From a virus, in IMG/VR virus record IMGVR_UViG_3300020442_001264, positions 20,030 to 84,029 of that record: DNA of 64,000 nucleotides. The stretch is one strand, 5' to 3'. Shown piece by piece: positions 18,862 through 40,581 of this stretch (position 1 is the first letter of the stretch; every line of letters starts with the position of its first letter). The position numbers and the translations under genes were made by a program. The notes under the pieces are model-generated. The model had not been told where the DNA came from, made no database searches, and worked only from the letters and a program-made list of their open reading frames with translations.

Positions 18862-19019
18862 AAACAGGTTGGACAATATGGAAATATGCCATAGGTTCAT
18901 TCAGTGATGAGAAAACAAAAGACTATGACAATTACGTTGCAGTAATAAGAACATTTGTAGTTTTAGTAAACGTTGTTTGTGCATTTTTTATTATGGCAAA
19001 CATCATACATAATTGGTAA
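18858..19019 (+). CDS. Small membrane protein (53 aa, not in ORF track)
   Basis: MKTGWTIWKYAIGSFSDEKTKDYDNYVAVIRT...; ATGA overlap upstream and TAATG overlap downstream. Confidence 0.65.
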   Translation: MKTGWTIWKYAIGSFSDEKTKDYDNYVAVIRTFVVLVNVVCAFFIMANIIHNW

Positions 19020-20656
19020 TGAGTATATACGATCAAGCCGCTGATAAGGCTAAAGAACAATTAGATAATATAAGCCCAACAATGTGCTATGCAAAATGGA
19101 GCCAAGTGTCTATGCATTTGACTAATGGCATGACGCATAGTTGCTACCATCCGCCTACACACAAAATACCGTTAGAAGAATTAGATAAAAATATTACAGC
19201 ATTACACAATACAGAAGAAAAGAAAGAACAACGTAGGCAGATGCTTAAAGGGGAAAGGCCCGAAGGTTGTAGTTATTGTTGGAATATAGAAGATACAGGT
19301 TCGAGGAGCGATAGAGTTTATCGTAGTGGAGAATATTGGGCACAGGAAAGCAGAGAAGATATAATGGATGCTGGTGCTAGTGGTAATATTAATCCTCGGT
19401 ATGTGGAAGTTAATTTTAATCAAGCATGTAATTTTAAATGTAGTTATTGTAGTCCACATTTAAGCACAAGTTGGCAAGAAGAAATAGAAGAATTTGGAGA
19501 ATATCCAACGACTGCTCCACATAACAACATTACTAGTCTAACTAACAAAGGTCTTATGCCACTTAAAATAAGCCAAGAAGATAATCCATACGTTACAGCA
19601 TTTTGGAAATGGTGGCCCGAGATGTATAAAACATTACGAGTGTTTCGTATGACAGGCGGTGAACCTTTAATGGACAAGAACACATTTAAAGTATTAGATT
19701 ATGTATATGAGCAACCAAACAAAGACTTAGAATTAAGTATAACATCAAATATGTGTCCAGTCAATGATGCATTGTTTGAAAAGTTTTTATCAAGTGTTAA
19801 AAAACTAGATAATGTACAACATGGTGCGGAAGTATATGTTAAGGATCCTTTAGATGGAACAGACTGGCAAACATGGCAACATTTTATAATAGGCGAAGAA
19901 GCAAAACGATATCACGACAGCGACTTACCAGTAATAGAGCGACATGATATACCGCAAACATTCTTACAAGTCGGACAATGTGAGGAACAAGACAATAACA
20001 GTTATACATACATTTATGAATACAACGATAAAGCATATCATAACTTTAGTGTGTTTGTAAGTTTAGATGGTTGGGGAGAACAAGCAGAATATATGCGTAA
20101 TGGTATGGACTTTGACCAACTATGGAATAATGTACATAGGTTTTTAGATGAAACTAGATATACTAGTGTTAATTTTATTAATACATTTAATTGTTTAAGT
20201 GTAACAAGTTTTAAAGAATTTTTAGAAGGAATATTAGAATTAAGAGAAAAGTGGAGTAAAGAAAATCAATTTGCAATGGGCTGGGAAGTACCGGAACAAC
20301 GTATATGGTTTGATATACCTTTACTGAGAAATCCTGCTTGGCAAAACTTACAAGTATTGCCTAGTCAATATCAGTCTTACATGGAAGAAGCAATACAGTT
20401 TATGGAACAAAATATTGCAAATGAAGATTATGTTGATTACAAAGGATTTAAAGATTTTGAAATTGCAAAAGCAAAACGTAACTTAGAAATTATGAAAAAA
20501 GAGTTGCCTCAAGAAAAATTAATTAGAGACAGAGCAGACTTTAATAAATTTTTTACAGAGCATGACTTAAGGCGTAACACAAACTTTTTAGCAACATTTC
20601 CAGAAATGCATGATTTTTGGGCAATGTGCGAAGAGGCGGAGGCACTTAATGGATAG
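19019..20656 (+). CDS. Radical SAM protein with N-terminal twitch-like domain (#1)
   Basis: CNFKCSYC, TGGEPL; N-terminal CYAKW..SCYHP..CSYCW. Confidence 0.9.
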   Translation: MSIYDQAADKAKEQLDNISPTMCYAKWSQVSMHLTNGMTHSCYHPPTHKIPLEELDKNITALHNTEEKKEQRRQMLKGERPEGCSYCWNIEDTGSRSDRVYRSGEYWAQESREDIMDAGASGNINPRYVEVNFNQACNFKCSYCSPHLSTSWQEEIEEFGEYPTTAPHNNITSLTNKGLMPLKISQEDNPYVTAFWKWWPEMYKTLRVFRMTGGEPLMDKNTFKVLDYVYEQPNKDLELSITSNMCPVNDALFEKFLSSVKKLDNVQHGAEVYVKDPLDGTDWQTWQHFIIGEEAKRYHDSDLPVIERHDIPQTFLQVGQCEEQDNNSYTYIYEYNDKAYHNFSVFVSLDGWGEQAEYMRNGMDFDQLWNNVHRFLDETRYTSVNFINTFNCLSVTSFKEFLEGILELREKWSKENQFAMGWEVPEQRIWFDIPLLRNPAWQNLQVLPSQYQSYMEEAIQFMEQNIANEDYVDYKGFKDFEIAKAKRNLEIMKKELPQEKLIRDRADFNKFFTEHDLRRNTNFLATFPEMHDFWAMCEEAEALNG

Positions 20657-20900
20657 TAGAAAAATAATAGACGCTCTTAAAAAGGGAGTAGTCACAATAG
20701 TATTTGAAAAAATAGACACAAAAGAGATTCGAACAATGCCATGCACATTAAACAATGAGATATCAGAACAAACAATGAAAGTTGGTAATTACACCAGTAC
20801 TGACACAATAGTTTGTTATGGGTTAGATGTTAAAGCATGGCGTGATGTTAGAATAAACACAATCATAGAATGGTACGAAGGATACCCAAAGGAGGCGTAA
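20649..20900 (+). CDS. Small SH3/Sm-like beta-barrel phage protein (WYL_2/DUF2693-like)
   Basis: LKKGVVTIVFEK..EIRTMPCTL...DVKAWRDVR; real start ATG 20649. Confidence 0.65.
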   Translation: MDSRKIIDALKKGVVTIVFEKIDTKEIRTMPCTLNNEISEQTMKVGNYTSTDTIVCYGLDVKAWRDVRINTIIEWYEGYPKEA

Positions 20901-21226
20901 TGCTAGACATAGACAGTATAAGAAACACACTTACAACAAACTTAAACGAAACAAAGTCTGAGGGAGTTGATATAGATATAAATGTAAATGTAATAAGTGA
21001 AGCAAATGGCAAATTTAATGTACAAGTTCACGATAGTGCAGTTACAGTTGATGATGGAAACTTGGATAAAGCAGACATCACAGTAGGCTTTGTAAACAAA
21101 GATGTAATGATAGATATGTTTACAAAGGGAGCAAATCCTATGTCATTAGTTATGAGCGGTAAGATGACTTTTAACGGTGATATGGCAAAAGGAAAAAGTA
21201 TTAAGGGGTTATTCGTAAAAGAATAA
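20900..21226 (+). CDS. SCP2 sterol/lipid-binding domain protein
   Basis: SD AGGAGG; ADITV...NPMSLVMSGKMTFNGDM. Confidence 0.8.
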   Translation: MLDIDSIRNTLTTNLNETKSEGVDIDINVNVISEANGKFNVQVHDSAVTVDDGNLDKADITVGFVNKDVMIDMFTKGANPMSLVMSGKMTFNGDMAKGKSIKGLFVKE

Positions 21227-21233
21227 TAATAAA

Positions 21234-21998
21234 ATGAAAGTTTTAATTTATGGATTACCTGGGTCTGGCAAAAGTTACTTAGCAGAAAAACTTTGCGAGT
21301 ATTTAGGTGATAAAGTAAAATGGATAAATGCTGATAAGGTTAGAGAAGAAGCAAATGATTGGGACTTCTCCGAAGAAGGTAGATATCGACAAAAACACAG
21401 AATGAAAATGCTGTGTGAACAAGCAGAAGCAGAAGGCAAAATAGCATTAGCAGATTTTGTTTGTCCTTATGTAACTGCAAGAGAAGAATTCAATGCAGAC
21501 TATAATATATTTGTGGATGCTATTGACGAAGGAAGGTTTGAAGATACAAACAAAATCTTTGAACGTGACAAAAATTATGATTACAGAATAAAAAATCATA
21601 ATAATATGGATGCAATTAATCTTGCTTGGATATTAGGTAACTTGTATATATGGGATTGGAAAGCACCTACAACACAAATGTTGGGAAGGTTCCAACCATG
21701 GCATGACGGTCATCAAGCATTGTTTGATAGAGCATTAGCAAAACACGGACAAGTGTTTTTAATGATTAGAAACATGGATACAGATGATAACAATCCTTAT
21801 CCGGCACCAGATGTTGCATCACACTTGAAAAGAGAATTGGTACATTATGCAGGTAGATTACAAATACAAGTAGTACCAAATATCGTAAACATAACTTATG
21901 GAAGAGACGTTGGATACAAAATTGAACAAGAACATTTTGATAAAAGCATTGAAGACATAAGTGCAACAAAAATAAGAAATGAAGGAAAGCAAACTTAG
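21234..21998 (+). CDS. Adenylylsulfate-kinase-like P-loop domain fused to an HxGH nucleotidyltransferase domain
   Basis: GLPGSGKS, NADKVR, DWDFS, ADFVCP; then LGRFQPWHDGH and ISATKIR. Confidence 0.75.
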   Translation: MKVLIYGLPGSGKSYLAEKLCEYLGDKVKWINADKVREEANDWDFSEEGRYRQKHRMKMLCEQAEAEGKIALADFVCPYVTAREEFNADYNIFVDAIDEGRFEDTNKIFERDKNYDYRIKNHNNMDAINLAWILGNLYIWDWKAPTTQMLGRFQPWHDGHQALFDRALAKHGQVFLMIRNMDTDDNNPYPAPDVASHLKRELVHYAGRLQIQVVPNIVNITYGRDVGYKIEQEHFDKSIEDISATKIRNEGKQT

Positions 21999-22167
21999 AA
22001 GTTTAGGAAAAGCAATTACATGGAGAATCACTGCAACACTCACGACAATTATAATAGCATGGCTACTTATAGGAGATGTAAATGTTGCCATGGCGATTGG
22101 CAGTATAGAGTTTTTTGCTAAATTTTTAATTTACTACATTCATGAAAGAGTATGGAACAAAATATGA
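21979..22167 (+). CDS. DUF2061-like small membrane protein
   Basis: RSLGKAITWR...YYIHERVWNKI. Confidence 0.75.
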   Translation: MKESKLRSLGKAITWRITATLTTIIIAWLLIGDVNVAMAIGSIEFFAKFLIYYIHERVWNKI

Positions 22168-22331
22168 TAGCAAAAGATCCAGGAAAAATGCATTACTATA
22201 TTAGTTTAGTAAAAAGCGGAGTTAGAATAGCAGGTTGTATAGGAGCAGTGGTATTACAGAGTATAACACTTTTGGCTGTTTCTTTTTTACTTGCAGAGAT
22301 ACTAGGAATACTAGAAGAAGTAATTGATTAA
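22164..22331 (+). CDS. Small membrane protein (55 aa, not in ORF track)
   Basis: MIAKDPGKMHYYISLVKSGVRIAG...AEILGILEEVID; ATGA overlap. Confidence 0.6.
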   Translation: MIAKDPGKMHYYISLVKSGVRIAGCIGAVVLQSITLLAVSFLLAEILGILEEVID

Positions 22332-22332
22332 G

Positions 22333-22340
22333 AGTAAATA
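22333..22340 (+). promoter_or_regulatory. Late-promoter-like element AGTAAATA, 5 nt before ATG 22346
   Basis: TAAATA at 22335-22340, then CAACA, then ATG. Confidence 0.65.
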
Positions 22341-22345
22341 CAACA

Positions 22346-22948
22346 ATGCCACATTTAAAAAGAATAGCAATTACAGGACACACTAAAGGTATAGGAAAAC
22401 AACTTTGGAATCGTCTAGAAGACAGAGGGTTTGAGCTTAAAGGCTTTAGTAAAAGTACTGGATTTAATTTACAACGTGTGAGTACATGTAAAAAGGTTGT
22501 ACAAGAGGTTGTAGATTGGAATGCTGATGTGTTTATAAATAATGCATACGTTCCTGATAATCAAGTTAGGTTGTTATATCTATTATATGAGCATTGGGAA
22601 AACAAGCCTAGGTTAATTGTAAACCTAAGTGCAACAAGTAGTGATAGTATCACTAACTTTAGTCAAATGGGTTACAATGAAAACTGGACTCCATATGTAA
22701 GTGACAAAGCAAGGTTAGACTTTGCTAGTCTACAATTGGCTAATATGTATAAAAAAGGCAAATGTAGAGTTAGTCTAGTAAAGCCTGGTTTTGTAGATAC
22801 TGACAGTACTGCTATGTTTAAAAGTTTTGCTGAAGACTATATGATGACAGCAGATAGTGTAGCAGAACAACTAGAATGGTTAATAGATTTAGGCAAGGAA
22901 GTACAAGTTAGAAATTTAAGTTTTGACGTAGGAAATTTCAATGGTTAG
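22346..22948 (+). CDS. Short-chain dehydrogenase/reductase (SDR)
   Basis: ITGHTKGIG, FINNA, YVSDK (YxxxK), VKPGFVDT. Confidence 0.85.
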   Translation: MPHLKRIAITGHTKGIGKQLWNRLEDRGFELKGFSKSTGFNLQRVSTCKKVVQEVVDWNADVFINNAYVPDNQVRLLYLLYEHWENKPRLIVNLSATSSDSITNFSQMGYNENWTPYVSDKARLDFASLQLANMYKKGKCRVSLVKPGFVDTDSTAMFKSFAEDYMMTADSVAEQLEWLIDLGKEVQVRNLSFDVGNFNG

Positions 22949-24611
22949 AAAAGTAGGAGAAACACATAGAGAATTTAAAGCACGGATGATAGATCCTGTG
23001 TCAGAATCTTTTTGTGGTGCTAAGTGGCTAAATGCTACTATATGGTTAGGACATGGCGGAACTACAAGTTGCCATCACCCTCCAGCACATCAAATAGATT
23101 TAGAAGAAATAAAAACTAATCCAAGTGCTATACATAACAGTAGGCACAAAAAGAAAATGCGTGACATGATGCAACAGGGCACAAGACCTAAAGAATGTGA
23201 ATACTGTTGGAAAATAGAAGACATGGGTAAAGACGCAGACGGTAATGAACCTGTAAGTGATAGAGTATATAAAACTGTTATCTATGAGGATAGCGATTTA
23301 GAAAGAATTGCCACCCTAGATCCCCAGGCTGATGTTAATTTAAAAACATTAGAGATAGCATTTGATAGAACATGTCAACTAGCATGTAGTTATTGTAATC
23401 CTGCTTTTAGTAGCACATGGGTTAAAGACATTCGAACTAACGGCGGCTATCAAGGAATAAAAAGTGATGCAAGAGGTCACTTTATAGATGATGCTCCGTA
23501 CGCCGAACCATTTCAACGAGGAGACTTTAATCCTTATGTAGATGCATTTTGGAGATGGTGGCCCGAACTATCTAAAGAACTAGAAGAGATTAGAGTTACA
23601 GGTGGCGAACCTTTAATGACACCAGACATATATAAATTGTTTGACTGGTTTAAAGAAACAGATGACCCAAACAAACACAAAATGCGATTAGCAATTAATA
23701 GTAACTTAATGGCTAAAGAAGAACTTCTTAATAAATTTATAGATGCTACACAGCACATAGACCACTTTCATGTTTATACAAGTTGTGAAGCCTTTGGCCC
23801 ACAAGCAGAATATATCAGAGATGGCTTAGAGTGGGAAGTGTGGACCGAACACTTTGAACGTTTTGCCACAGAAGCAAACTATGAAGGTGTTCATATGATG
23901 ATGACCATTAATGCTTTATGTTTAGATACTATTACAAAGTTTTGGGATTGGTGTTTAGATATGAAACGAAAATACGGGCACCATGTACCTGGTATAAGTG
24001 TAAACATATTGCGTTTTCCAAGTTTTCAAAGTCCGTTAACATTACCAGACAATTTGCGTAAAATGTATCATGACGAAATTAGTGAATGGCTAAACAACGT
24101 AAGAGAAAAAGCAGAAACAGATAGCAACGGTGTAGAACTTTTACAACCGTGGGAACAAGACCAAATAAGTCGACTAATAGAATATTTAGACGTTGTTAAG
24201 ACCCCGCATAGAAATACAGCAGACAGAGAGTTACTAGAACACGACTTTAAAATATTTTACGAACAATACGATGCTAGAAGAAATTTTAATTTTAAAGAAA
24301 CATTTCCTAGACTAGCAGAATTCTATGACAGTATAAAAGTTTTAGATATAACTGACGGTGACAATGACGTACAATCGCCTGATAGTATAGGAATAAAAAA
24401 TACATTGTATGCAAAACGTATTGTAACAGAAGACGGTGAAGTCAAGGTAGTAGAAATGAAAGTTCGTGGTAGACAAACAGGGGAAAGCCAAGATGACTAT
24501 GACGATGACAAATATGCTGAAGACGAAGCCAAAAACAAACGTGTAGGAAGTAGCATTGGCTGGGATACCGAAGTTGACGGTTTAGGTGGAACAGTAGATG
24601 AAGAGGATTAA
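22941..24611 (+). CDS. Radical SAM protein with N-terminal twitch-like domain (#2) and acidic C-terminal tail
   Basis: CQLACSYC, TGGEPL; N-terminal CGAKW..SCHHP..CEYCW. Confidence 0.9.
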   Translation: MVRKVGETHREFKARMIDPVSESFCGAKWLNATIWLGHGGTTSCHHPPAHQIDLEEIKTNPSAIHNSRHKKKMRDMMQQGTRPKECEYCWKIEDMGKDADGNEPVSDRVYKTVIYEDSDLERIATLDPQADVNLKTLEIAFDRTCQLACSYCNPAFSSTWVKDIRTNGGYQGIKSDARGHFIDDAPYAEPFQRGDFNPYVDAFWRWWPELSKELEEIRVTGGEPLMTPDIYKLFDWFKETDDPNKHKMRLAINSNLMAKEELLNKFIDATQHIDHFHVYTSCEAFGPQAEYIRDGLEWEVWTEHFERFATEANYEGVHMMMTINALCLDTITKFWDWCLDMKRKYGHHVPGISVNILRFPSFQSPLTLPDNLRKMYHDEISEWLNNVREKAETDSNGVELLQPWEQDQISRLIEYLDVVKTPHRNTADRELLEHDFKIFYEQYDARRNFNFKETFPRLAEFYDSIKVLDITDGDNDVQSPDSIGIKNTLYAKRIVTEDGEVKVVEMKVRGRQTGESQDDYDDDKYAEDEAKNKRVGSSIGWDTEVDGLGGTVDEED

Positions 24612-26013
24612 ACCATTATGGGCACATGGAAACATGCTACCCGAATCACCCAATAAAGTATTCTGTACAGCACCGTGGACACATACTTACATTTCACCGC
24701 AAAGTGAAAGACGTATGTGTTGTGCTAGTAGAGAAGAACACAAATTCCAAAAGCAGTACATCGACGCCAGCAACGATGAGAAGTATGGTGAAGTAAAAGA
24801 GTCTGGAACTATAGAAGACTACAAACAAAATGTTGTAAGCCTTAAAGAGCATTGGAACTCGCCTTACATGATGGACATAAGAAAGAAACTTATGGCAGGC
24901 GAACGTATTCCACAATGTGATGTGTGTAATGACAGCATACTAAGTCAAAGCACATATCGTCAATGGTTCACAGGATTTTTGTTTGAAAAATATATCGACA
25001 AATGTTTTGAGGAGACAGACGAAAATGGATACACTACTATGGAACCTATCAGTTTTGACTATAGGGTTAGCAATCTGTGTAACTTTAAGTGCCGTATGTG
25101 TGGCGAACAACTTAGCTCAACGTGGGAAACAGAAAAGAGACAACATGGTCATTGGACGCCTGAGAACCAACCGTTTATGGTTCCGGAGAACAAAGAGATT
25201 ATCGAGAAGTTCCAAAAAGAAGTTGTAGAAGAAGAATTTTGGGACGCCATATGTAGAGGCATTGTAGAAGAAATATATTGGGTAGGCGGTGAGCCACTAA
25301 TGTATGATATACATTGGCGCTCTATGGATAGACTATCACAAGACGGCAATTTAGACAAAGTACATCTAAGGTATAACAGTAATCTAAGTAGAGTTAGATA
25401 TGGCAAATACTATTTGTACGATTGGTTACCACAAGCAAAAGACTGGACCATGTGTGCAAGTATAGACGGCATAGGACAAATAGGCGAGTTTATACGAACA
25501 GGTTTAGACTGGGAGCAATGGGATAAAAACTTTAGAGAAGGTGTACAGTTACCAGGCGGACATCAAAAGATGTTGATGGACTTAACATTAACAGGCCCGG
25601 GCCTATTTGGTCTTAGAGACTTTGTAAATTACGCATTAGAGAATGATGTAAAGATAGAAACAAAGACAATGTTTGCCTTCCATCCAGATATTGTGTTCAG
25701 TTTTATGAGTTGGCCTAGACATATATTAGATAGAATAGTAAACAGTTTATTAGATGACTTACGACCTATAGTGACAGAAAAACAACAAACAGTAATTACG
25801 CAACTAGAGTCTATCCTAAATACTCCTACATTTCAAGAACAATTTCCTGATACAGCAGAAGACCAGTTCTTTAATGGCAGACAATGGCAAAGAACAATAG
25901 CAGAAATTAGAAATGACGGACACGAAAGTTTAACAATTGAAGATATTTATTCAGCAGACCAAGAATTATTAGATTGGTATTCACGTGTTGATCCAAAACA
26001 CAATAGTAGGTAA
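24598..26013 (+). CDS. Radical SAM protein with N-terminal twitch-like domain (#3)
   Basis: CTAPW..CC..CDVC; CNFKCRMC; VGGEPL; ASIDG. Confidence 0.9.
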   Translation: MKRIKPLWAHGNMLPESPNKVFCTAPWTHTYISPQSERRMCCASREEHKFQKQYIDASNDEKYGEVKESGTIEDYKQNVVSLKEHWNSPYMMDIRKKLMAGERIPQCDVCNDSILSQSTYRQWFTGFLFEKYIDKCFEETDENGYTTMEPISFDYRVSNLCNFKCRMCGEQLSSTWETEKRQHGHWTPENQPFMVPENKEIIEKFQKEVVEEEFWDAICRGIVEEIYWVGGEPLMYDIHWRSMDRLSQDGNLDKVHLRYNSNLSRVRYGKYYLYDWLPQAKDWTMCASIDGIGQIGEFIRTGLDWEQWDKNFREGVQLPGGHQKMLMDLTLTGPGLFGLRDFVNYALENDVKIETKTMFAFHPDIVFSFMSWPRHILDRIVNSLLDDLRPIVTEKQQTVITQLESILNTPTFQEQFPDTAEDQFFNGRQWQRTIAEIRNDGHESLTIEDIYSADQELLDWYSRVDPKHNSR

Positions 26014-26015
26014 CC

Positions 26016-29642: not shown

Positions 29643-29680
29643 TTCTACACACACAACAAACTAAAAATTAGGAGATAAAA

Positions 29681-30997: not shown

Positions 30998-31000
30998 GAT

Positions 31001-31792
31001 ATGGTTACGGATCAGGAAATACTAGACTATATCTTTTCTAAGTGGGGTAAGAAACAAGAGATGTTGCAACTCAACGAGCAATATCGCTATACCCCTCCTT
31101 ACCCTACATTACATTTAGAAGATTTTATTCCTGAGCATGTGTCTAAGGCATTATACGAAGAAAGTAAAACTATACCTGAAAAGTTTTGGACAACTTTTAC
31201 TAGAGCAGGTAGTTATATGGAAGAGTGTAATGATTTAGAAGAGGCACCGGTTGCCCGAGCAGTTGTTAGTGCAATGCATAGCAAACCATTTTTAAAATGG
31301 TTAAGTAAGATATGTGATGTACAACATCTACTTCCTGATCCGTATCTTGTGGGGGCAGGATACATGAAAAGTTACAAAGGTGATAGTTTGAAAATACATA
31401 CAGACTTTAACTGGAATGAAGAATGTCAAACACACAGAGCATTAAGTTTAATACTATACTTTACACCGGAGTGGGACGAAGAATGGCATGGTGACTTACA
31501 GTTTTGGGATTTTGATAAAAAGAAAAGAGTTACCAGTTTCCCACCCAAGATGGGTAATGTTGTAGTTTGGAAATATCACAAACGTGGCTTTCATGGTCAT
31601 CCAAATCCTATCGATTGTCCTGATGATAAATTTAGAGTAGGTTTTAGATTATTTTATTACATCAGTGACAGTATACATGACTGGAGAGATCCACCACATA
31701 AAAGTTTATATTGGTATGACAAAGATAAAAGCCAACCATATCATATAGAAACAGAATACGGACATGGAAAATTAGATGATAAAGAACGTTAA
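31001..31792 (+). CDS. 2OG-Fe(II) oxygenase
   Basis: HTDFN (HxD), GDLQFWD, FHGHP, distal R. Confidence 0.85.
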   Translation: MVTDQEILDYIFSKWGKKQEMLQLNEQYRYTPPYPTLHLEDFIPEHVSKALYEESKTIPEKFWTTFTRAGSYMEECNDLEEAPVARAVVSAMHSKPFLKWLSKICDVQHLLPDPYLVGAGYMKSYKGDSLKIHTDFNWNEECQTHRALSLILYFTPEWDEEWHGDLQFWDFDKKKRVTSFPPKMGNVVVWKYHKRGFHGHPNPIDCPDDKFRVGFRLFYYISDSIHDWRDPPHKSLYWYDKDKSQPYHIETEYGHGKLDDKER

Positions 31793-32783
31793 TCCAAACA
31801 ACAATTGGTGGATGTATGGATATGAAAATCCACTACATGAACTTGAAGCAGGTTATGAAGGTATTGATATATCACAAGTGCCAGCACAAGAATTTAAGGG
31901 TGGGTATGCTATACAAGATGATTATGTAACAAGAGAACTTGTTGACTATATGAAGTCAACAAATTGGAATAATTTTTTTGTAGCAGACGGTCATCACAAT
32001 CTACAAGTAGAATATAGAGAACTTTTTAAACGTTGGGTGCAATCAAGCAATTTAAATAAAATAAGATTTCAGAATTTAAATTTTGCATGTATTACTAACG
32101 GCACTTCAGAAGCATTCCAAATGTTTTTCTTGAGACACAATCAACGCCGCTTTAAATTTTTTAAAGGCGATTTTATGATGCATAAAGTTGCTAGTCATGT
32201 ATCACAGGTTGACTGGGAATGGATAGATGATAACGGTACTTTAGAATATGGTGATGCTTTAATAGTAAGTTGCCCATTTAGTGATACAGCAAGATTACCA
32301 GAAAACTTTGACGAGTGGATGGACTTAGCACATCGTTGTGACGTACCCGTATTGTTAGACATGGCATATTTTGGTACATGTGTAAATTTAGATATAGATA
32401 CAGAAAACTATCCTGCTATAGAAGAAATAACTTTTAGTTTAGGAAAAACATTTCCTATTATTGGTGCAAGAGCAGGTATAAGATTCCAAAGAGAATTAGT
32501 TGATGATCCTGTGACATTTGCAAATCAACATGGTATAGCAAATAATTTTGCATGTAAAATAGGTGTACATGCTATGACTAACTATAGTCCTGATTATATA
32601 CCTATAAAATATTACGATGCATATCATCAACTTTGTTTAAACCATGACTTATTACTTAGTAATTGTGTAATCTTTGCATTAAGTGATGACCAAAAATATA
32701 TGGAAATAAATAGAGGGAATACAAATACAAGACTTTGCCTAAGCAAATTTGTAAAGGAAAATTATGAGCTCAGCCAAAACTAA
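31776..32783 (+). CDS. PLP-dependent enzyme (fold type I)
   Basis: NGTSEAF, SCPFS, LLDMAY, FSLGKTF (Schiff-base Lys), RAGIR. Confidence 0.7.
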   Translation: MIKNVNPNNNWWMYGYENPLHELEAGYEGIDISQVPAQEFKGGYAIQDDYVTRELVDYMKSTNWNNFFVADGHHNLQVEYRELFKRWVQSSNLNKIRFQNLNFACITNGTSEAFQMFFLRHNQRRFKFFKGDFMMHKVASHVSQVDWEWIDDNGTLEYGDALIVSCPFSDTARLPENFDEWMDLAHRCDVPVLLDMAYFGTCVNLDIDTENYPAIEEITFSLGKTFPIIGARAGIRFQRELVDDPVTFANQHGIANNFACKIGVHAMTNYSPDYIPIKYYDAYHQLCLNHDLLLSNCVIFALSDDQKYMEINRGNTNTRLCLSKFVKENYELSQN

Positions 32784-34182
32784 CAGATATGGATTCCAGT
32801 ACGGAGCATTCGAAGAAAAAGAATTGTTCGATCCTGATTACAAATACTGTGCATTATTGTGGAGCCACATTAGCAACGAGCCAGGAGGTACAGTAAGAAC
32901 ATGCTGTATTGCTACAGAAAGAATTAAAGACGAAACTGGACAAGATTATAATCTGGGTGAACATGGTATGTTAGATATCTTGACTAGCAATACTATGAAA
33001 GAATATAGGAATCAAATAAGAAACGGAGAAGAAATACATAACTGTGAAACATGTTGGATAGATGAACGCAATGGCAAAGAATCAAAGAGACAACAATATA
33101 ACGAATATTATAAACAATGGTACGGACATGATGCTATTGTATGGAACGAAGAACCGACAAGATTAATAGATGCCCAATTAATTTTCGACAATACTTGTAA
33201 TTTAAAATGTAGAAGTTGCAATGCCAACTATAGTAGCAAGTGGAAAGAAGAAGCAGATGATAGAAAGATTCCTTATTGGGAGACTACTGCTAAAATAGAT
33301 ATGAATGATATAGAACGTAGTGCGTTTTGGAAAACATTAGATGAGTGGACTGAGAATGTATTACGTTTAGAAATAATGGGCGGTGAACCTTTCTATATGA
33401 AAGAGTTTAAAAAGTTTGTAGACTTTTTAATTGATACAGGCAGAGCAAAAAACATAGCATTAACATTAAGCACAAACGGAACTATAGCAGATAAAAACTT
33501 TTTAGATAAGATGGCTAAGAACTTTAAAGACTTAGCATTCAGTGTAAGCATAGATGGAATAGAAGACCAGTTTACATATTTAAGACATCCAGGAAAATGG
33601 AATGAAGTAAAAGAGAATTTAGATTATTATTATGAATTGCACAACAGTGAGTATCCTGTTTTTGTACAGATTACTCATACCGTAAGTGCATTAAACATTA
33701 TGTACTTGCCAGAGTTTCATAATTATTTTGAACAGCATTTTCCTAATTTTAAAATATGGAACAATGCAGTACATTATCCTAAATGGATATGTGCAAGTGT
33801 ATTGCCTAAGAAAGCAAAGAAACAAATTACAGATAAATTACTTAGACACAATTGGTTGCCTCAGTATAAAAGTGAGATACAAGCATTAATAGATTTTATG
33901 AATTCACCTTTATATGAAAACGGCTCTAGTGTAGTAGACAGTTTAAAAAGTAAATTTGATGAAGAAAAATTAAAATTCTTTGACCAAAGAAGCATAGAAA
34001 AGAAATGGGAAATTTTTAAATCACAGATAGTAGGAGGTGACATATACAGAGAAGAAAACTTTGTTCAGGTATTCCCTGAATTATATGAACTAATAAAAGA
34101 TGATTTTGATTATACAAAAGAATATGAAACTGTGTCGACAGCAGGATTCTTGCCAGTTAGTCAGGGAGAGTATAGCAATTGA
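32764..34182 (+). CDS. Radical SAM protein with N-terminal twitch-like domain (#4)
   Basis: CALLW..CC..CETCW; CNLKCRSC; MGGEPF; STNG; SIDG. Confidence 0.9.
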   Translation: MSSAKTNRYGFQYGAFEEKELFDPDYKYCALLWSHISNEPGGTVRTCCIATERIKDETGQDYNLGEHGMLDILTSNTMKEYRNQIRNGEEIHNCETCWIDERNGKESKRQQYNEYYKQWYGHDAIVWNEEPTRLIDAQLIFDNTCNLKCRSCNANYSSKWKEEADDRKIPYWETTAKIDMNDIERSAFWKTLDEWTENVLRLEIMGGEPFYMKEFKKFVDFLIDTGRAKNIALTLSTNGTIADKNFLDKMAKNFKDLAFSVSIDGIEDQFTYLRHPGKWNEVKENLDYYYELHNSEYPVFVQITHTVSALNIMYLPEFHNYFEQHFPNFKIWNNAVHYPKWICASVLPKKAKKQITDKLLRHNWLPQYKSEIQALIDFMNSPLYENGSSVVDSLKSKFDEEKLKFFDQRSIEKKWEIFKSQIVGGDIYREENFVQVFPELYELIKDDFDYTKEYETVSTAGFLPVSQGEYSN

Positions 34183-35438
34183 GTAAGACATATTGCCCAC
34201 TACCTTGGAATCACTTAGCAACACACCCGCACGGTGGTGTAACATTGTGCTGTATAAGTGACCATACTGATGGTTTGAATCGAGCAAGGAATTATAAGGA
34301 GGAACATAACGAATTCTTTGATTTAAATAAACAAACAATAAACGAACATATGAATAGCGACTACTACAAAGAAGTTCGCTTAGAAATGTTAAATAATAAG
34401 AAACCTAAAGCATGTATGCGATGTTATGAGGAAGAAGATAAAGGAATAAAAAGTAAGAGACAACATGAGACCGAAGTATTTAGACAGAACTCCCCCGATT
34501 GGGCATCCAAACTTACTAGTGAGGACGGGAGTATTCCTATGGATCTGCGTTTTGTTGAGTTGCGTCTTGGCAATGTATGTAACGTCCGTTGTCGTACATG
34601 CAATCCTGCAAGTTCCAGTAAATGGTTGGAAGACTATAAAAGCATTGTTCAAAAAGCAGACTTCGTCAACAAAGGATATCTAGGATTAAATTTTCCAGAT
34701 GACTTTAAGTGGGCAGAAGATGATAACTTTTATAATGACTTATATGAGTCTGCTCCAAACTTAGAACTACTTTATATTAATGGAGGAGAGCCTACATTAA
34801 TTAAACAACACTGGACTTACTTAAGAAAATTAGTAGAAAGCGGAAGGAGTAAAAATATAATTTTATGGTACAACATTAATTGTACTATGTTGCCACCAAT
34901 TGCTTTAGACTTGTGGCCCGAGTTTAAAGAAGCAAGAATATGTTTAAGCATTGATGACTTGGAAGATAGAAATGCTTTTATACGTTCAGGCACAGAGTGG
35001 CAGGCTGTTTGCAATACTGTAAACAAACTTAAAGATAATGAAGATAAATTAACTTTAAGAATAACGCAGACTGTTAGTGCATATAACTATGCTACATTAC
35101 CTGAGTTTTTTGAATGGGCTAAAAGCATTGGGATAGAAGTTGATATGAACTTTGTGTATGATCCTGATTACCTAAGTCCCATGGTTATACCACCTAGGGC
35201 AAGAGAGTTGATACATACACGATTCAGAAAACTATTAGGTAATGACCACAAACTAGGAACATTGTTGAGTATGTTTAATACTCCAGAGTGGGACGAGTTG
35301 AAGTGGGAACAGTTTTGTCGTTTCAACGACTTGTTAGATAAAAACGATACTGACTTAGGAAAAGTTTCTAATTGGAGAAATACATTTACTGAGTTATGTG
35401 AGGTTGTAGAGAAAAGTGGAAGTACTACGATATACTAA
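34179..35438 (+). CDS. Radical SAM protein with N-terminal twitch-like domain (#5)
   Basis: TTG start; CPLPW..CC..CMRCY; CNVRCRTC; NGGEPT. Confidence 0.9.
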   Translation: MSKTYCPLPWNHLATHPHGGVTLCCISDHTDGLNRARNYKEEHNEFFDLNKQTINEHMNSDYYKEVRLEMLNNKKPKACMRCYEEEDKGIKSKRQHETEVFRQNSPDWASKLTSEDGSIPMDLRFVELRLGNVCNVRCRTCNPASSSKWLEDYKSIVQKADFVNKGYLGLNFPDDFKWAEDDNFYNDLYESAPNLELLYINGGEPTLIKQHWTYLRKLVESGRSKNIILWYNINCTMLPPIALDLWPEFKEARICLSIDDLEDRNAFIRSGTEWQAVCNTVNKLKDNEDKLTLRITQTVSAYNYATLPEFFEWAKSIGIEVDMNFVYDPDYLSPMVIPPRARELIHTRFRKLLGNDHKLGTLLSMFNTPEWDELKWEQFCRFNDLLDKNDTDLGKVSNWRNTFTELCEVVEKSGSTTIY

Positions 35439-36177
35439 ACCAAAAGGCGATGCCTTAAGATGGGTTGCACATGCAGGATTACTTGCAGGCTTGCTCATGG
35501 GTCCTAACAATTATTGGTGGGCAACACTAGGCGTATACTGTTGGTTTGCTAGTATAGGATTATTTGTAGGACAACACAGATACTTTGCACATAGAAGTTT
35601 TAGAACAAACAAGTTTTGGGAAACTATTTTAAACATATCTGGAACATTAGCAAGTTTAACAAGCACGTTTGGATATGTTATAAAACACAGAGAACATCAT
35701 AAAGATTCAGATGGAAAGAATGATCCTCATAGTCCACATCATATGTCAGCATGGAAAAGTTGGACATTAGGATTAAAAGATGACAAGTATGATATAAAAC
35801 TAGGCAGGGACTGGATTCGTAATAAAGGTGTTATGCATACACATGTAAACTTCTTTGCTTATATTATTGCGTACAACATATTGTTAGCATTTATAGACCC
35901 TTGGCTTGTGTTATATGCATACTTGATGCCTGTTAGTTTGTGTGTATGGGCAACTGGTGCCTTTAACACATGGGGACATGGAAAAGGATTATCAAGTTTA
36001 GGTTACAGGACTTGGGACACAAAAGACCAAAGTGTAAATCATCATTTAGTAAATGTAATTACATTTGGAGAAGGCTGGCATAACAATCACCACAACAATC
36101 CAAGTGATTGGAGACATGGACAAGAGTGGTGGGAATGGGATTTTAACGCATGGGTAATAAAATTAATAAAACAATAG
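35416..36177 (+). CDS. Membrane fatty-acid (delta-9-like) desaturase
   Basis: His boxes HRYFAH, HREHH, HNNHH; DPHSP; GEGWHNNHH. Confidence 0.9.
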   Translation: MEVLRYTKPKGDALRWVAHAGLLAGLLMGPNNYWWATLGVYCWFASIGLFVGQHRYFAHRSFRTNKFWETILNISGTLASLTSTFGYVIKHREHHKDSDGKNDPHSPHHMSAWKSWTLGLKDDKYDIKLGRDWIRNKGVMHTHVNFFAYIIAYNILLAFIDPWLVLYAYLMPVSLCVWATGAFNTWGHGKGLSSLGYRTWDTKDQSVNHHLVNVITFGEGWHNNHHNNPSDWRHGQEWWEWDFNAWVIKLIKQ

Positions 36178-37454
36178 ACGAGATAAAAGAATTAGCAAAG
36201 GGCGATGCTTTTTGTATCCTTCCTTGGATACACATGCACCCATGGCCCGATGGTAGAGTGTTTACTTGTTGTCTGAGCGAACATCATAGTCCAATTGGCA
36301 ATTTAAATGAAATGGACTTAGACGAATGTTACAACAGTGACAATATGAAAAAGTTTAGATTGGACATGCTTAACAACAAAAAGATTTCTAATTGTACAAG
36401 ATGTTATGAACTAGAAGATATAGGGCACGACACTTTGCGTAAAAGAAGTAACAGCGAATTTATAGAAGAAAAATTTGCATACCACAACAACAAAGCAGAA
36501 ATTGTACAGCAAACAAATGATGATGGTAGTGTTGATAAAGTTCACTTAACTTATATGGATATACGTTTTAGTAATATATGCAATATGAGATGTAGAACAT
36601 GCGGACCTGATTTAAGTAGTCAATGGTTTGAAGATGCAGTAGACAGTAAGTTCAATAGAACACCTACACAAAAGATATTACAAATAAGAAAAGGTAATAC
36701 TGCATTTATGGAACAATTTGATCCATACTTAGATACAGTAGAGAAAATATATTGGGCAGGCGGTGAGCCGTTGATAATGGACGAGCATTGGTATATAATG
36801 AATAAGTTAGTTGAGATGGGCAGAACTAAAAAAGAAACTCCTATGAGAATCTTTTACAATACAAACTTTAGTAAATTAACATACAAGGATCAAGATGCTA
36901 TAGAGTTGTGGAAAAACTTTGATGAGGTTAGTGTAGGTGCAAGTTTAGATGCTGGTTGGAAGAAAGGAGAGTACTTACGCAAAGGTACAATATGGAGTGA
37001 AACACTTGCAAACAGAGAACGTATGAAACAAGAACTACCAGACAAAGACTTTAATATAAGTTGTACAGTCAGTATGTTTAATGCGTTAGATGTCTGCGAC
37101 TTTTATAAAAAGTTATGTGAGATAGAATTTATAGAACCTAAGGACTTTGGTATTAATATATTATTAGGTAAGCATGTACATAGGGCAACAGTATTGCCTG
37201 AACACATGAGAAAGCAAGTCCAAAAGAACATTGAAGAAACATTAGACTGGATAGGCGACCGTGATACAGTTGGTCGTGTTACAGATACATTTAAAAGTTT
37301 ACATCAGTTTATGGATGGTGATGATAGTCATTTGTTATCTGATAGTTTACAAGAATGTAAAGAGATGGATAGATTTAGAAGTGAAACATTGTTTGATGTG
37401 TTTCCAGAATTAGAAGATTTACGACCTTACTATGATGAGGAAATTGATGACTAG
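36150..37454 (+). CDS. Radical SAM protein with N-terminal twitch-like domain (#6)
   Basis: CILPW..CC..CTRCY; CNMRCRTC; AGGEPL. Confidence 0.9.
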   Translation: MGNKINKTIDEIKELAKGDAFCILPWIHMHPWPDGRVFTCCLSEHHSPIGNLNEMDLDECYNSDNMKKFRLDMLNNKKISNCTRCYELEDIGHDTLRKRSNSEFIEEKFAYHNNKAEIVQQTNDDGSVDKVHLTYMDIRFSNICNMRCRTCGPDLSSQWFEDAVDSKFNRTPTQKILQIRKGNTAFMEQFDPYLDTVEKIYWAGGEPLIMDEHWYIMNKLVEMGRTKKETPMRIFYNTNFSKLTYKDQDAIELWKNFDEVSVGASLDAGWKKGEYLRKGTIWSETLANRERMKQELPDKDFNISCTVSMFNALDVCDFYKKLCEIEFIEPKDFGINILLGKHVHRATVLPEHMRKQVQKNIEETLDWIGDRDTVGRVTDTFKSLHQFMDGDDSHLLSDSLQECKEMDRFRSETLFDVFPELEDLRPYYDEEIDD

Positions 37455-38670
37455 ACCAGAACATTTTTGCATACTACCTTGGATTAATCAAGAGGCTCGC
37501 ACCAATGGAGAGATTGGTGTGTGCTGTGTTATGCAAGAAACAGCACCAGGGATAAATTTAGCAGACGGTCATACATTAAAAGATGCATGGGACAGCGAAT
37601 GGTTAGCAAATCTAAAACAAGATTTTTTAGATGGTAAAAAGCCTAAGGCATGTTACAACTGCTGGAATGAAGAAGAAGCAGGCATTGAAAGTAAACGTTT
37701 ACGTGAACTTAAAAAATTTCCTCATCACTTAGATAACCTGGACCATATAAAACCAAAGAGCATGGATTTAAAATTAGGAAATATTTGTAATACAAAGTGT
37801 AGAATATGTACAGGATTTGCTAGTAGTCAATGGGTGCCAGAAGAAATAGAACGAGACGGTGACACAAATCAGTTTGCACATCTTATGGGCAGACTAGGAC
37901 GTTGGCCCGAGCTCAATGAAAAGTTTTGGGAAGATATAGAAAATCAAATTGAAGAAGTAGAAAGTTTAGAGTTTTTTGGTGGAGAACCTTTTTTAATAAA
38001 AAGACATTTTGATATATTGCAAACATTAGTAGACAAAGGTAGAGCAAAAGATATTACATTGAGTTACAACACAAATGGTTCTATATACCCAGAGCAGTAT
38101 ATGGATTTACTTAAACAGTTTAAAGACGTTCAAGTATTTTTTAGTATAGACGGAGTAGATGAAAGATTTAATTATATTAGACATCCACAACAGTTTAATG
38201 AAGTAATAGAAAATTATTGGAAGTTTAAAAACACAGAATTTATTAGAACAAATATTTTTTATACTGTGAGTATATTTAATATTATGTATATGGATGAATT
38301 GTTACAGTTTCAATTAGATAATAACATTGATACTGAAATTCATTTCAATATGGTATATGTTCCACAACACATAAGTCCTAAAGCATTGCCTAAAAAAGTA
38401 AAACAAGTAATCACAGATAAATTTAAAGGTAATAATGATCCTAGAATACAAAGTACTTTGAATTTTATGAATCAAGAAGATTACGAAGGATACATGGATG
38501 AGTTTGTAAGACAAACATCATTCAGTGACAAATACAGAGGAGAAAGTTTTGCAGAAACATTTCCTGAACTATGGCAATACATGGAACCTTATTTTAAAAA
38601 TGAAAGTGTAATGGAATTAATGGACACTATGGATCATATAAATTTATTAGACAAGCACGATAAGATATGA
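37447..38670 (+). CDS. Radical SAM protein with N-terminal twitch-like domain (#7)
   Basis: CILPW..CC..CYNCW; CNTKCRIC; FGGEPF; NTNG; SIDG. Likely start ATG 37447. Confidence 0.9.
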   Translation: MTRPEHFCILPWINQEARTNGEIGVCCVMQETAPGINLADGHTLKDAWDSEWLANLKQDFLDGKKPKACYNCWNEEEAGIESKRLRELKKFPHHLDNLDHIKPKSMDLKLGNICNTKCRICTGFASSQWVPEEIERDGDTNQFAHLMGRLGRWPELNEKFWEDIENQIEEVESLEFFGGEPFLIKRHFDILQTLVDKGRAKDITLSYNTNGSIYPEQYMDLLKQFKDVQVFFSIDGVDERFNYIRHPQQFNEVIENYWKFKNTEFIRTNIFYTVSIFNIMYMDELLQFQLDNNIDTEIHFNMVYVPQHISPKALPKKVKQVITDKFKGNNDPRIQSTLNFMNQEDYEGYMDEFVRQTSFSDKYRGESFAETFPELWQYMEPYFKNESVMELMDTMDHINLLDKHDKI

Positions 38671-39293
38671 GCAAAGTATTATTAAAAACATCAGGTAGAA
38701 CAGGCTCGCACTTGTTGTTAGACAAGTATGAGAAAGAAGGTCATAGGGTATACTTCACTGCTACACATGACACAAAATCATTGTACGAATATGATTTAAC
38801 AGAAAGTCTAATTCCGTTTAACTTTGATTTTATTGTGCAATGTCATTTAATGCAACTACCAAAAGACACATCACAATGGGATTTAATTTTTAACGTAAGA
38901 GGCGATATGATATCTCAGATATGTAGCAGTATAATTGCACACCACACAGATGTTTGGCATGGTGTTGCAGAAATTAAAGAAAAGATTGTAGTAGATAAAC
39001 ACACAATTAAACAACAAGTAATTAAGCATGTAAGTTTTAATACTTACATGAAATATGTTTGCGAATACTTGCCGTGGAAGTCTACACAAAGAATATCAAC
39101 AGAAGAAATACTACAAGAGGATTGGACTCATTTAGAATACAAAAAATCTATTAAACATGAAGATGCTATAGATGATTATGAGAATGTCAGGAAGTATGTT
39201 GCAAATGTACAAGCAAGATTTTATGACTTAGGTGTAGCATATGGTAAAACAGAATTTGATAAAAGGTACGGAGACAAATATGACATACAGTAA
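38667..39293 (+). CDS. Sulfotransferase-like P-loop protein
   Basis: N-terminal GRTGSHLL (PAPS-loop-like) and R..ISQICS; similar to 58688. Confidence 0.5.
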   Translation: MSKVLLKTSGRTGSHLLLDKYEKEGHRVYFTATHDTKSLYEYDLTESLIPFNFDFIVQCHLMQLPKDTSQWDLIFNVRGDMISQICSSIIAHHTDVWHGVAEIKEKIVVDKHTIKQQVIKHVSFNTYMKYVCEYLPWKSTQRISTEEILQEDWTHLEYKKSIKHEDAIDDYENVRKYVANVQARFYDLGVAYGKTEFDKRYGDKYDIQ

Positions 39294-40581
39294 AACATTT
39301 TGTCCTTACCCTTGGATACATGTTATGACACAACCAAGCAGTACAGTGAACTTTTGTTGTGTTGCTAACGGTCAAATTAAAAATGATGACGGTAGTGTTT
39401 TAATGTTAAACAAAGGTGATGATATATCATCTGTTTGGAATAACAATCATTATAAAAAAATTAGACGTCAAATGATAGAAGGCGATAAAGTAGAAGGTTG
39501 TGAACCTTGCTATGATTTAGAAGATTTAGGAATTCCTAGTTATAGAGAAAACTATATAAAGGATTGGTTAGGCTTTCATAGGAATGCTGACCAAATTAAA
39601 AACATCATTGACAAAAGTATTGACAATGATTATGTTGTCGAAGAAACACCACAGTACTTAGATTTTAGATTAGGCACACTATGTAACTTGCGTTGCAGAA
39701 TGTGTCAGAGTCAAAACAGTAGTGCTATATATAAAGAATTAAAAGATGAGGAATTATACAATGAAGAAGAACGAAAGTTTATCGTGGAAACAAGTCATTG
39801 GGGTGACTTTAGCGATTATACTCAGCCTTGGTTTGATGATCCTGGGTTCCTTAGCACAGTGGAAACATGGTTGCCTAATGTCAACAGGCTTTACTTCACA
39901 GGGGGTGAGCCCACAATTATACAACGTGTGTATTGGATCCTCGAAAAATGTGTCGAGCTCGGAATAAATCAAAACATAGATTTAGTATTTAATAGTAATA
40001 TGACAAACATACAACCAAGGTTTTTAGACTTAATAGCCAAGTTTAAAGATGTGTTGATGTGTTTAAGTGTTGATGGCTATGGAACAACAAACGAATATAT
40101 AAGAAGTGGTAGCACTTGGAGTATAGTAGACAAACACATTAGAGACTATGCAAAGTCAGACGTAGTAGGTAATATACTGTTTAGTCCTGTAGTACAAATT
40201 TACAACATACTAGACATAACAAAACTATTGGACTATGCAGAAGAAATAACAAACGAGAGTGGTCGTAGAATAGATATCAGTTTCTTGTTAAACAATTATC
40301 CAAAGTGCTTGGATATAAGAAACTTGCCTAAAGGTATAAGAGTTGAAGCACAATTAACTTTACATGAGTGGTTGCAGAACAGCACATACTTTGATGACGA
40401 TGAACGTAACAGACAAAGTGTGTTAGGATTAATAAATGCATTAGACGACAAAAATGTAAACGAAGATGCAGAACATCAAATGCAAGTGTTTAGGAAGTAT
40501 ACAGAATTGTTAGACAATAAACGAAATCAAAGTATCGAAAAACAACTACCTAAATTATGGAGTAGACTCAAGTGGACATAA
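39280..40581 (+). CDS. Radical SAM protein with N-terminal twitch-like domain (#8)
   Basis: SD GGAG before ATG 39280; CPYPW..CC..CEPCY; CNLRCRMC; TGGEPT; SVDG. Confidence 0.9.
   Translation: MTYSKTFCPYPWIHVMTQPSSTVNFCCVANGQIKNDDGSVLMLNKGDDISSVWNNNHYKKIRRQMIEGDKVEGCEPCYDLEDLGIPSYRENYIKDWLGFHRNADQIKNIIDKSIDNDYVVEETPQYLDFRLGTLCNLRCRMCQSQNSSAIYKELKDEELYNEEERKFIVETSHWGDFSDYTQPWFDDPGFLSTVETWLPNVNRLYFTGGEPTIIQRVYWILEKCVELGINQNIDLVFNSNMTNIQPRFLDLIAKFKDVLMCLSVDGYGTTNEYIRSGSTWSIVDKHIRDYAKSDVVGNILFSPVVQIYNILDITKLLDYAEEITNESGRRIDISFLLNNYPKCLDIRNLPKGIRVEAQLTLHEWLQNSTYFDDDERNRQSVLGLINALDDKNVNEDAEHQMQVFRKYTELLDNKRNQSIEKQLPKLWSRLKWT

Follow-up and report, generated by a model that had tools for sequence, protein, structure and literature searches.

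Eight divergent radical SAM paralogs with an N-terminal twitch-like domain form an ancient set in one phage gene island

A 64,000-nucleotide stretch of viral DNA (the window, bases 20030-84029 of the 84,029-base IMG/VR virus record IMGVR_UViG_3300020442_001264, for which CheckV gives a completeness of 23%) carries eight open reading frames (ORFs) for radical S-adenosylmethionine (SAM) enzymes, which we number r1 to r8 along the window and locate by window positions. All eight belong to the NCBIfam family NF033640 (N_Twi_rSAM), in which a cysteine-rich, twitch-like domain precedes the radical SAM barrel, and they are ancient, separately conserved paralogs. Family membership, intactness, motif conservation, paralog age, purifying selection and synteny were observed directly. 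The reading that we favour, and that we think about evenly balanced between right and wrong, is that r1-r8 are eight different two-cluster radical SAM enzymes tailoring a sugar nucleotide or glycan.

The architecture itself is already known, being catalogued as NF033640, a family without a characterised member in the literature searched. What the present analysis adds is that a single-cysteine, histidine-rich type within it makes up a clade that is deep and evolves on its own, yet retains four cysteines, and that cultured phages (RsoM2USA and K566) carry family members, making the function testable. In the sunlit ocean, eight to nine separately conserved copies of an oxygen-sensitive iron-sulfur enzyme are a heavy expense, and such an investment by a phage implies an elaborate product important for infection. 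Knowledge of the substrate would give access to new radical SAM chemistry and reveal what marine giant phages place on their fibres or hosts.

Results

Eight intact members of one family

The eight ORFs, of 412-556 codons, lie intact on the + strand between 19013 and 40581 (Table 1). Each matches the NF033640 model end to end with a score of 298-357 bits, the curated cut-off being 170 (E-values 1e-89 to 1e-107), and scores so far above the cut-off rule out chance motif matches as an explanation. A six-frame search of the whole 84-kb record with the same model recovered these eight copies, with zero internal stops, and no others, and 14 control genomes gave zero matches above the cut-off. Membership of r1-r8 in NF033640 is close to certain. 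The CxxxCxxC motif and GGEP are invariant columns across the r1-r8 alignment. Pfam Radical_SAM matches all eight at E<=0.01, its 29.5-bit cut-off being passed by four, and among PHROGs the eight match weak 'radical SAM domain' families only.

An earlier note, made from the letters of the window, had reported CxxxCxxC and GGEP in eight ORFs and had read these as paralogous radical SAM enzymes with an auxiliary cysteine domain at the N-terminus. Its coordinates are correct, three of its starts (19019, 37447 and 39280) being internal ATGs of the longest ORFs, and ortholog starts agree with 19019 and 39280 as start sites. Its reading of the architecture is borne out by the NF033640 matches and by the SPASM and BtrN matches described below; the comparison that it had suggested with the NCBIfam N-terminal-twitch model was clearly positive.

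All eight share with the NF033640 model the order of a Cys-rich twitch-like domain followed by a radical SAM barrel, and they differ among themselves in detail. Within its barrel, at about residues 265-345, r1 carries an insert of ~75 residues that splits its match to the model and is kept in orthologs. The C-terminus of r2 (24320-24611) is an acidic tail of ~95 residues that the other seven paralogs lack. A long loop lies within the twitch-like domain of r3, which overlaps r2 by 14 nt; the start of r2 in turn overlaps the end of a short-chain dehydrogenase-like (SDR) gene by 8 nt, and r4 overlaps an upstream gene that is aminotransferase-like by a weak match.

The paralogs are old and separately conserved

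Pairwise identity among r1-r8 is 21-34%, and where a one-to-one best match of a paralog was found in related phages the two are 57-91% identical. These relatives are ~340-kb T4-type phages. G001, a record of 339,794 bases that is 91% complete, has the cassette across the record ends and carries a T4-type major capsid gene (Gp23); G002-G005 are fragments. Copies above the NF033640 cut-off number 9, 8, 8, 9 and 5 in G001 to G005; eight to nine divergent members per cassette are a trait of this phage group and not of the model. Orthologs are 58-87% identical for r1, 73-86% for r2, 76-88% for r3, 62-88% for r4, 80-90% for r6, 81-90% for r7 and 69-89% for r8. The ratio of nonsynonymous to synonymous substitution rates (dN/dS) is 0.03-0.14 in 11 of the 19 ortholog pairs, the other eight being saturated at synonymous sites (dS) and yielding no ratio; by paralog it is 0.03-0.14 for r1, 0.07-0.10 for r2, 0.07 for r7 and 0.06-0.11 for r8.

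A FastTree phylogeny was built from 132 rows, namely r1-r8, 21 ORFs from the relatives and 103 single-domain cluster representatives, with a partial ORF (L015:3-872) and a radical SAM ORF outside the family (L013:9271-10461) left out. Each window paralog and its orthologs form their own clade in it, with support of 96-100, which is the ortholog-specific conservation that the earlier note had looked for. Recent near-identical duplicates or pseudogenes are ruled out by the intact frames, the 21-34% identity and the low dN/dS of orthologs under purifying selection. These data show that r1-r8 are ancient, separately conserved paralogs.

G001 holds an extra paralog (L013 5954-7273) beside its r4 ortholog and 51% identical to r4. 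The excluded ORF at L013 9271-10461, of 397 amino acids (aa), stands between the desaturase and the r6 ortholog of G001; it scores only 33 bits with NF033640 and so belongs to a different radical SAM family.

A twitch-like domain ahead of the barrel

Four cysteines N-terminal to the barrel are invariant in all eight proteins. In a 121-sequence family alignment (r1-r8, the 103 single-domain cluster representatives and 10 r5 homologs), C25, C79 and C82, in r5 numbering, are present in every sequence and C6 in 118, the remaining three having gaps there; the radical SAM cysteines C134, C138 and C141 and the pair G202-G203 are likewise found in 121 of 121. Outside the radical SAM motif the only conserved cysteines are C6, C24, C25, C79 and C82. 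This content (four, or five in the CC type described in the next section) suffices for one auxiliary cluster, as in twitch domains; the seven to eight cysteines with which SPASM domains hold two auxiliary clusters are absent, and no second CxxCx5Cx3C set occurs.

The Pfam SPASM model matches residues ~6-111, ahead of Radical_SAM, in five of the eight proteins, and four pass its 21.5-bit cut-off. A profile of the N-terminal domain, for which 23 sequences were taken from this phage and from three relatives, was compared with 177,635 distinct PDB sequences and found BtrN alone below E 0.9 (two sequences, one at E 0.0015 and one at 0.002; residues 164-241 of the chain); these residues are the region of the BtrN twitch domain. 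When a model of the isolated domain (predicted local distance difference test score, pLDDT, 74.4, with residues 28-42 below 50) was searched against 48,161 chains, three reached Z 2, and the top match was again BtrN, at residues 165-247 (Z 3.4, root-mean-square deviation (rmsd) 3.4 Å over 80 residues). The predicted fold thus matches BtrN weakly, yet on exactly the expected domain.

BtrN (a radical SAM dehydrogenase from butirosin biosynthesis, PDB 4M7S/4M7T) shares with the phage domain a cysteine pattern in which a first Cys is followed after about 17 residues by G-x4-C and, at a long distance, by CxxC. Identity is about 18% over 80 residues, and the HMMER register places the CC pair under the first Cys of BtrN, so residue-by-residue correspondence is uncertain. 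The two also differ in position, as the twitch domain of BtrN follows its barrel whereas the domain of r1-r8 precedes it. In the available part of a review (PMC9012708), SPASM and twitch domains are described as C-terminal extensions, as the earlier note had stated, with twitch binding one auxiliary cluster; that of BtrN is ligated by four Cys and has been proposed to accept an electron, and the substrate of the enzyme is an amino-cyclitol, which is sugar-like. The C-terminal position typical of twitch enzymes is not that of r1-r8, where the domain is N-terminal. This inverted domain order is genuine, and since the name of the NCBIfam model records an N-terminal twitch it had already been catalogued; literature searches for an N-terminal or permuted SPASM or twitch domain found no report.

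The AlphaFold 2 (AF2) prediction for the whole r5 protein is confident (mean pLDDT 96.4, predicted template modelling score (pTM) 0.93) and places the twitch-like domain, with C6, C24, C25, C79 and C82 in residues 1 to ~112, before the barrel; C134, C138 and C141 and the GGEP of residues 202-205 follow. The barrel (residues ~122-364) is the sole part that aligns to solved radical SAM enzymes, with Z of 13.3 for anSME, 13.0 for BlsE, 12.6 for viperin and CteB, 12.4 for SkfB, 12.0 for MoaA and 11.9 for SuiB. The closest resemblance is thus to cores of the SPASM/twitch group (anSME, BlsE, CteB, SkfB and MoaA). Foldseek TM-scores of r5 against solved chains are 0.30-0.42, and given these values and the barrel-only alignment the whole architecture is shared by no solved chain. 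The best barrel match, the SPASM enzyme anSME (PDB 4K36-4K39; rmsd 3.5 Å over 210 residues, Foldseek E 6.7e-7), has TM-scores of only 0.36-0.42 because just the barrel aligns. It differs from r1-r8 in having a C-terminal SPASM domain, two auxiliary clusters and a protein Cys or Ser as substrate, against 4-5 conserved N-terminal cysteines, enough for one cluster, in the phage proteins. As the nearest enzymes include both peptide enzymes (anSME, CteB, SkfB, SuiB) and sugar or nucleotide enzymes (BlsE, viperin, MoaA), the fold picks no substrate class.

Two cysteine subtypes

The motif of r3-r8 is C..(P/L)W...CC...CxxC, and that of r1 and r2 is C.AKW...SC(Y/H)HPP...CxYCW. The earlier note had set six CC ORFs apart from two His-containing ORFs and had taken them for two ligand subtypes. 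The motifs are as it described, and the division is a deep clade split with many clade-specific residues, three histidines among them. Four cysteines (C6, C25, C79 and C82) are nevertheless kept in both types, the CC type having an extra fifth, so different ligand sets are not established.

In the tree, the 19 of 132 rows with a single Cys lie on one side of a branch with support of 100, and the other 113 are all CC; a long branch, L017:9311, falls in the single-Cys group with a less sure placement. The single-Cys clade has K for P after the first Cys (100% versus 0% in the CC clade) and has lost the His after PW that is found in 80% of the CC clade. At r2 positions 46, 50 and 65 it has His in 89%, 95% and 100% of its members, a residue that at most 2% of the CC clade have there. 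The two residues that separate the second from the third radical SAM cysteine are S-Y in the single-Cys clade; in the CC clade the first of them is R in 89% and the other varies, so that the usual aromatic residue of CxxxCxxC is missing (e.g., r5, window 34578-34601). As judged from these signatures, the two are real subfamilies whose auxiliary sites would have different surroundings.

Which cysteine of the CC pair would serve as a ligand depends on the alignment. In an ungapped alignment the lone Cys of r1 and r2 falls under the second Cys of CC, and in another MAFFT run under the first. The C-x17-C spacing and G-x4-C of BtrN favour the first Cys of the pair; they fit it as well as the lone Cys in r1 and r2, where the Gly is displaced by one position. 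The local register of HMMER differs again, with the CC pair under the first Cys of BtrN.

Spread of the family

A profile of r1-r8 matched, among 1.84 billion, 26,474 cluster representatives at E<=0.001, 12,906 at 1e-10 and 7,288 at 1e-30. The family is large and, in the few cases with a recorded taxon, mostly viral; viruses account for 97-100% of the known taxa in the nearest ESM Atlas clusters, and the names of cluster members were uninformative. For r5 there are 1,067 homologs, and homologs are abundant in marine metagenomes. At least 8,000 homologs were found for r2, all at E<=1e-3, the best 120 of them at 78% identity or more, and the contigs reach up to 346 kb. The distant representatives P0320 and P0380 had no matches among viral contigs.

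Near-identical DNA was not found in cultured phages, and a protein-level search gave distant matches only, in 24 of 50,697 records. Cultured carriers are Ralstonia phage RsoM2USA, with two copies over the cut-off, and Vibrio phage K566, with two over and three under it. In both records the family genes are labelled hypothetical or 'radical SAM domain-containing', and the annotated regions around the copies contain mostly hypothetical proteins.

Of 401 genomes sampled from a single bacterial phylum, the query genome alone gave a match. The matching contig (L020 / G006 C28) is 14 kb long and has three adjacent family genes, one of them r6-like and 79% identical; the metagenome-assembled genome that holds it is titled as an uncultured gammaproteobacterium. 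The contig is probably phage DNA binned into that genome.

Among the best 150 representatives, 36 are 760-1466 aa long, nearly all with two or three matched stretches; they could be either genuine tandem fusions or overlapping genes that were called as one. Pfam comparison of 10 longer representatives revealed one fusion to a GT2 glycosyltransferase, one partial subtilase and one with TPR repeats, the remainder having radical SAM or SPASM domains only.

Gene context of the island

Every ORF of 200 codons or more from 8249 to 49138 is on the + strand, and between 22346 and 41306 most neighbouring genes of that strand share 4-53 nt. Upstream stand a 2,740-aa ORF that Pfam does not match and a protein of 654 aa that a tail-fibre PHROG matches. 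The island keeps its synteny in G001 and G002 and, in part, in G005. What is kept in all three is the 332-aa protein at 17863, r1, r2, r3, the dehydrogenase at 29681, r5, the carbamoyltransferase and a 1,312-aa repeat protein. The best conserved neighbour is the protein at 17863 (83-97% identical in G001, G002 and G005); the dehydrogenase is 80-94% and the carbamoyltransferase 53-86% identical in three relatives. An SCP2/alkyl-sulfatase-C-like protein (Pfam) follows r1, and a glycosyltransferase by PHROG at 47937 and a DUF6071 protein also lie in or around the island.

Table 1. Radical SAM paralogs and other genes of the island, in window positions.
Feature	Position	Strand	Type, match or remark
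Phosphomannomutase-like	12366..13061	+	Pfam PMM, E 2.9e-25
Alternative oxidase (PTOX-type)	16660-17226		Pfam AOX, E 1.5e-68
332-aa protein just upstream of r1	17863..18861	+	no Pfam or PHROG match
r1	19013..20656	+	single-Cys 'SCYHPP' type; likely true start ATG 19019; NF033640 323.4 bits, in two pieces
APS-kinase-like and cytidylyltransferase-like protein	21234..21998	+	Pfam APS_kinase, E 5.1e-9; CTP_transf_like, E 4.3e-5
Short-chain dehydrogenase-like (SDR)	22346..22948	+	Pfam adh_short, E 3.6e-7; overlaps r2 start
r2	22941..24611	+	single-Cys 'SCHHPP' type; NF033640 318.8 bits
r3	24598..26013	+	CC type; NF033640 297.9 bits; Pfam SPASM residues 23-111
UDP-glucose/GDP-mannose dehydrogenase family	29681..30997	+	Pfam UDPG_MGDP_dh, E 1.4e-17
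2-oxoglutarate (2OG)-Fe(II) oxygenase	31001..31792	+	Pfam 2OG-FeII_Oxy_3, E 1e-12
r4	32764..34182	+	CC type; NF033640 303 bits; Pfam SPASM residues 29-98
r5	34179..35438	+	CC type; NF033640 350.5 bits; protein chosen for modelling
Fatty-acid-desaturase family, between r5 and r6	35416..36177	+	Pfam FA_desaturase, E 3.3e-11
r6	36150..37454	+	CC type; NF033640 357 bits; Pfam SPASM 39.3 bits, residues 22-86
r7	37432..38670	+	CC type; start in the earlier note 37447; NF033640 347.8 bits
r8	39241..40581	+	CC type; likely start 39280; NF033640 341.2 bits
Carbamoyltransferase	41511..43064	+	Pfam Carbam_trans_C, E 3e-53; Carbam_trans_N, E 5.6e-41

A similar setting is described in the available part of PMC7029224, where pelagimyophages carry radical SAM cassettes and many glycosyltransferases in a hypervariable tail-fibre region that adjoins giant VrlC and tail-fibre genes, and where modification of the host O-chain is favoured. 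The likeness of those cassettes to the r1-r8 island is one of position and content; the same part of that paper names neither the family, the inverted architecture nor the paralog number.

Possible function

The phosphomannomutase-like protein, the dehydrogenase, the carbamoyltransferase, the cytidylyltransferase-like protein, the SDR and the glycosyltransferase at 47937, together with the one GT2 fusion, point to glycan tailoring. The earlier note had proposed sugar dehydrogenases or epimerases, or else maturases, each with its own substrate; the gene context agrees with sugar chemistry. Under the reading that we favour, SAM would bind on the [4Fe-4S] cluster held by CxxxCxxC, and the 5'-deoxyadenosyl radical formed there would remove a hydrogen atom from the substrate. 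The ~110-residue N-terminal homolog of the BtrN twitch domain would hold a second, fully Cys-ligated [4Fe-4S] cluster, which would most likely accept or give back an electron, in the way suggested for BtrN. Since the paralogs are old and separately conserved, each would probably act at its own step or its own position within one pathway. Since the neighbours make and transfer activated sugars, the substrate would most likely be a sugar nucleotide or a growing glycan, and the product may decorate virion fibres or the infected-cell surface. Binding of the second cluster, chemistry, substrate and destination are the proposed parts of this scheme.

A bolder form of this scheme, which we consider rather improbable as a whole, joins a pathway to two mechanistic classes. 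The pathway would be a largely virus-borne one of radical glycan editing, in which eight successive oxygen-independent C-H functionalisations (possibly oxidation, epimerisation, deoxygenation and C-C coupling) would act on a single sugar polymer covering the virion or the infected cell. Cysteine hydrogen donors occur in radical SAM epimerases, and by analogy the CC class might keep a spare thiol by the auxiliary cluster that could return a hydrogen atom, giving redox-neutral epimerase-type or reductive chemistry. The class of r1 and r2, without the spare thiol but with the classical aromatic residue in CxxxCx(Y)C, might then carry out net two-electron oxidations like BtrN. The analogy starts from the clade signatures, and this division of labour would be an extrapolation from them.

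Several observations weigh against glycan tailoring by two-cluster enzymes. A number of 'glycosyltransferase-like' neighbours have no Pfam or PHROG match, sugar-pointing fusions amount to one in the 10 longer representatives, and the island also houses a fatty-acid desaturase gene and one for an SCP2 lipid-carrier-like protein. By structure BtrN is matched weakly (Z 3.4), the isolated-domain model is of moderate quality, and cluster binding at the N-terminus is suggested by homology only. The nearest solved barrels mix peptide-modifying with sugar or nucleotide enzymes, and the literature searched contains no tested activity or substrate for any NF033640 member.

Another possibility is that r1-r8 are protein or peptide maturases, which would introduce thioethers, epimerised residues, cross-links or oxidised side chains into virion proteins in the manner of the SPASM/twitch maturases of ribosomally synthesised peptides with post-translational modifications (RiPPs) or of anSME. 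We hold this to be unlikely, though worth serious consideration. The peptide enzymes anSME, CteB, SkfB and SuiB are among the nearest barrels, and many characterised SPASM enzymes act on peptides according to the available part of PMC9012708. The island is also directly downstream of the 2,740-aa ORF and the tail-fibre-like gene, whose products would be the candidate substrates. Against this, the neighbours are mostly sugar-nucleotide enzymes, and Pfam finds no peptide-recognition domain in any of r1-r8, no screen for remote homology to the RiPP recognition element (RRE) having been made. Nor is there a short precursor-like ORF in 20600-22400, the sole stretch read at a 25-aa cut-off, where the small ORFs encode a membrane protein of DUF2061, a WYL_2 protein and another protein that is membrane-like.

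The desaturase and the carrier-like gene would fit enzymes that modify a lipid or glycolipid tail, for instance by forming C-C bonds on acyl or isoprenoid chains, an explanation that we find quite improbable. The desaturase, between r5 and r6, is kept in G001 and G002, the SCP2/alkyl-sulfatase-C-like protein comes after r1, and weak matches to tetraether lipid synthase were seen (NF045702; 7tol, E 1.5e-4; 7tom, Z 11.4). However, these matches are no better than those to many other radical SAM enzymes, G005, the more distant relative, is without the desaturase and SCP2 genes yet keeps r1, r2, r3 and r5, and the conserved core of the island is sugar-related.

A different doubt concerns the N-terminal domain itself, whose four cysteines might bind zinc or nothing and be structural, leaving r1-r8 as single-cluster radical SAM enzymes. 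The domain profile touches PDB zinc-finger chains at non-significant E-values (0.93 and 5.9), and the isolated-domain model is moderate. Even so, the SPASM cut-off is passed in four of eight proteins, the iron-sulfur twitch domain of BtrN is the sole notable match by both profile and fold, and the four cysteines are conserved family-wide, which makes a structural role very doubtful. Least probable of all, and to our mind far-fetched, is a phage DNA hypermodified with tailored sugars as in some T4-type phages, for although G001 has a T4-type major capsid gene and virus glycosyltransferases that hypermodify DNA appear in the reference list of PMC12619734 as available, the island genes that were compared with Pfam include neither a hydroxymethylase nor a kinase for nucleotides, and the island sits behind fibre-type genes and outside the replication module, with DNA ligase and exonuclease 15-23 kb away on the other strand.

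Other observations on the island

The PTOX-type gene might suggest a cyanophage origin, but this is not supported: G001, although 91% complete, has no Photo_RC match, and its capsid gene is the T4-type Gp23. The alternative-oxidase gene is absent from the G001 stretches compared. T4 late promoters as drivers of the island are not supported either, as TATAAATA has 3 occurrences versus 9.8 expected.

In metatranscriptome run X3, seven short contigs that are 99% alike or more fall on 20600-40590; two of these map to r5 and one to r7. They hint only weakly at expression of the island, as DNA carry-over is possible and the contigs show neither level nor strand, and stretches that they leave uncovered are uninformative. 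Runs X1 and X2 are seemingly one data set filed twice.

An ORF for a 96-aa WYL_2 protein (Sm-like SH3 barrel), at 20610-20900, overlaps r1 at its end and the SCP2-like gene at its start. What looks like a gap of 348 nt from the APS-kinase-like gene to the SDR (21979-22331) contains two small ORFs, one of 62 aa encoding a DUF2061 membrane protein (E 4.3e-20, 77% identical in G002) and one of 59 aa that is membrane-like by sequence. Four proteins of 375-449 aa (13931-15280 and 26016-29642) have no Pfam or PHROG match; tblastn matches to them lie at the same places in the loci of the relatives, at 26-37% identity, and from these shared places the four are probably one divergent family.

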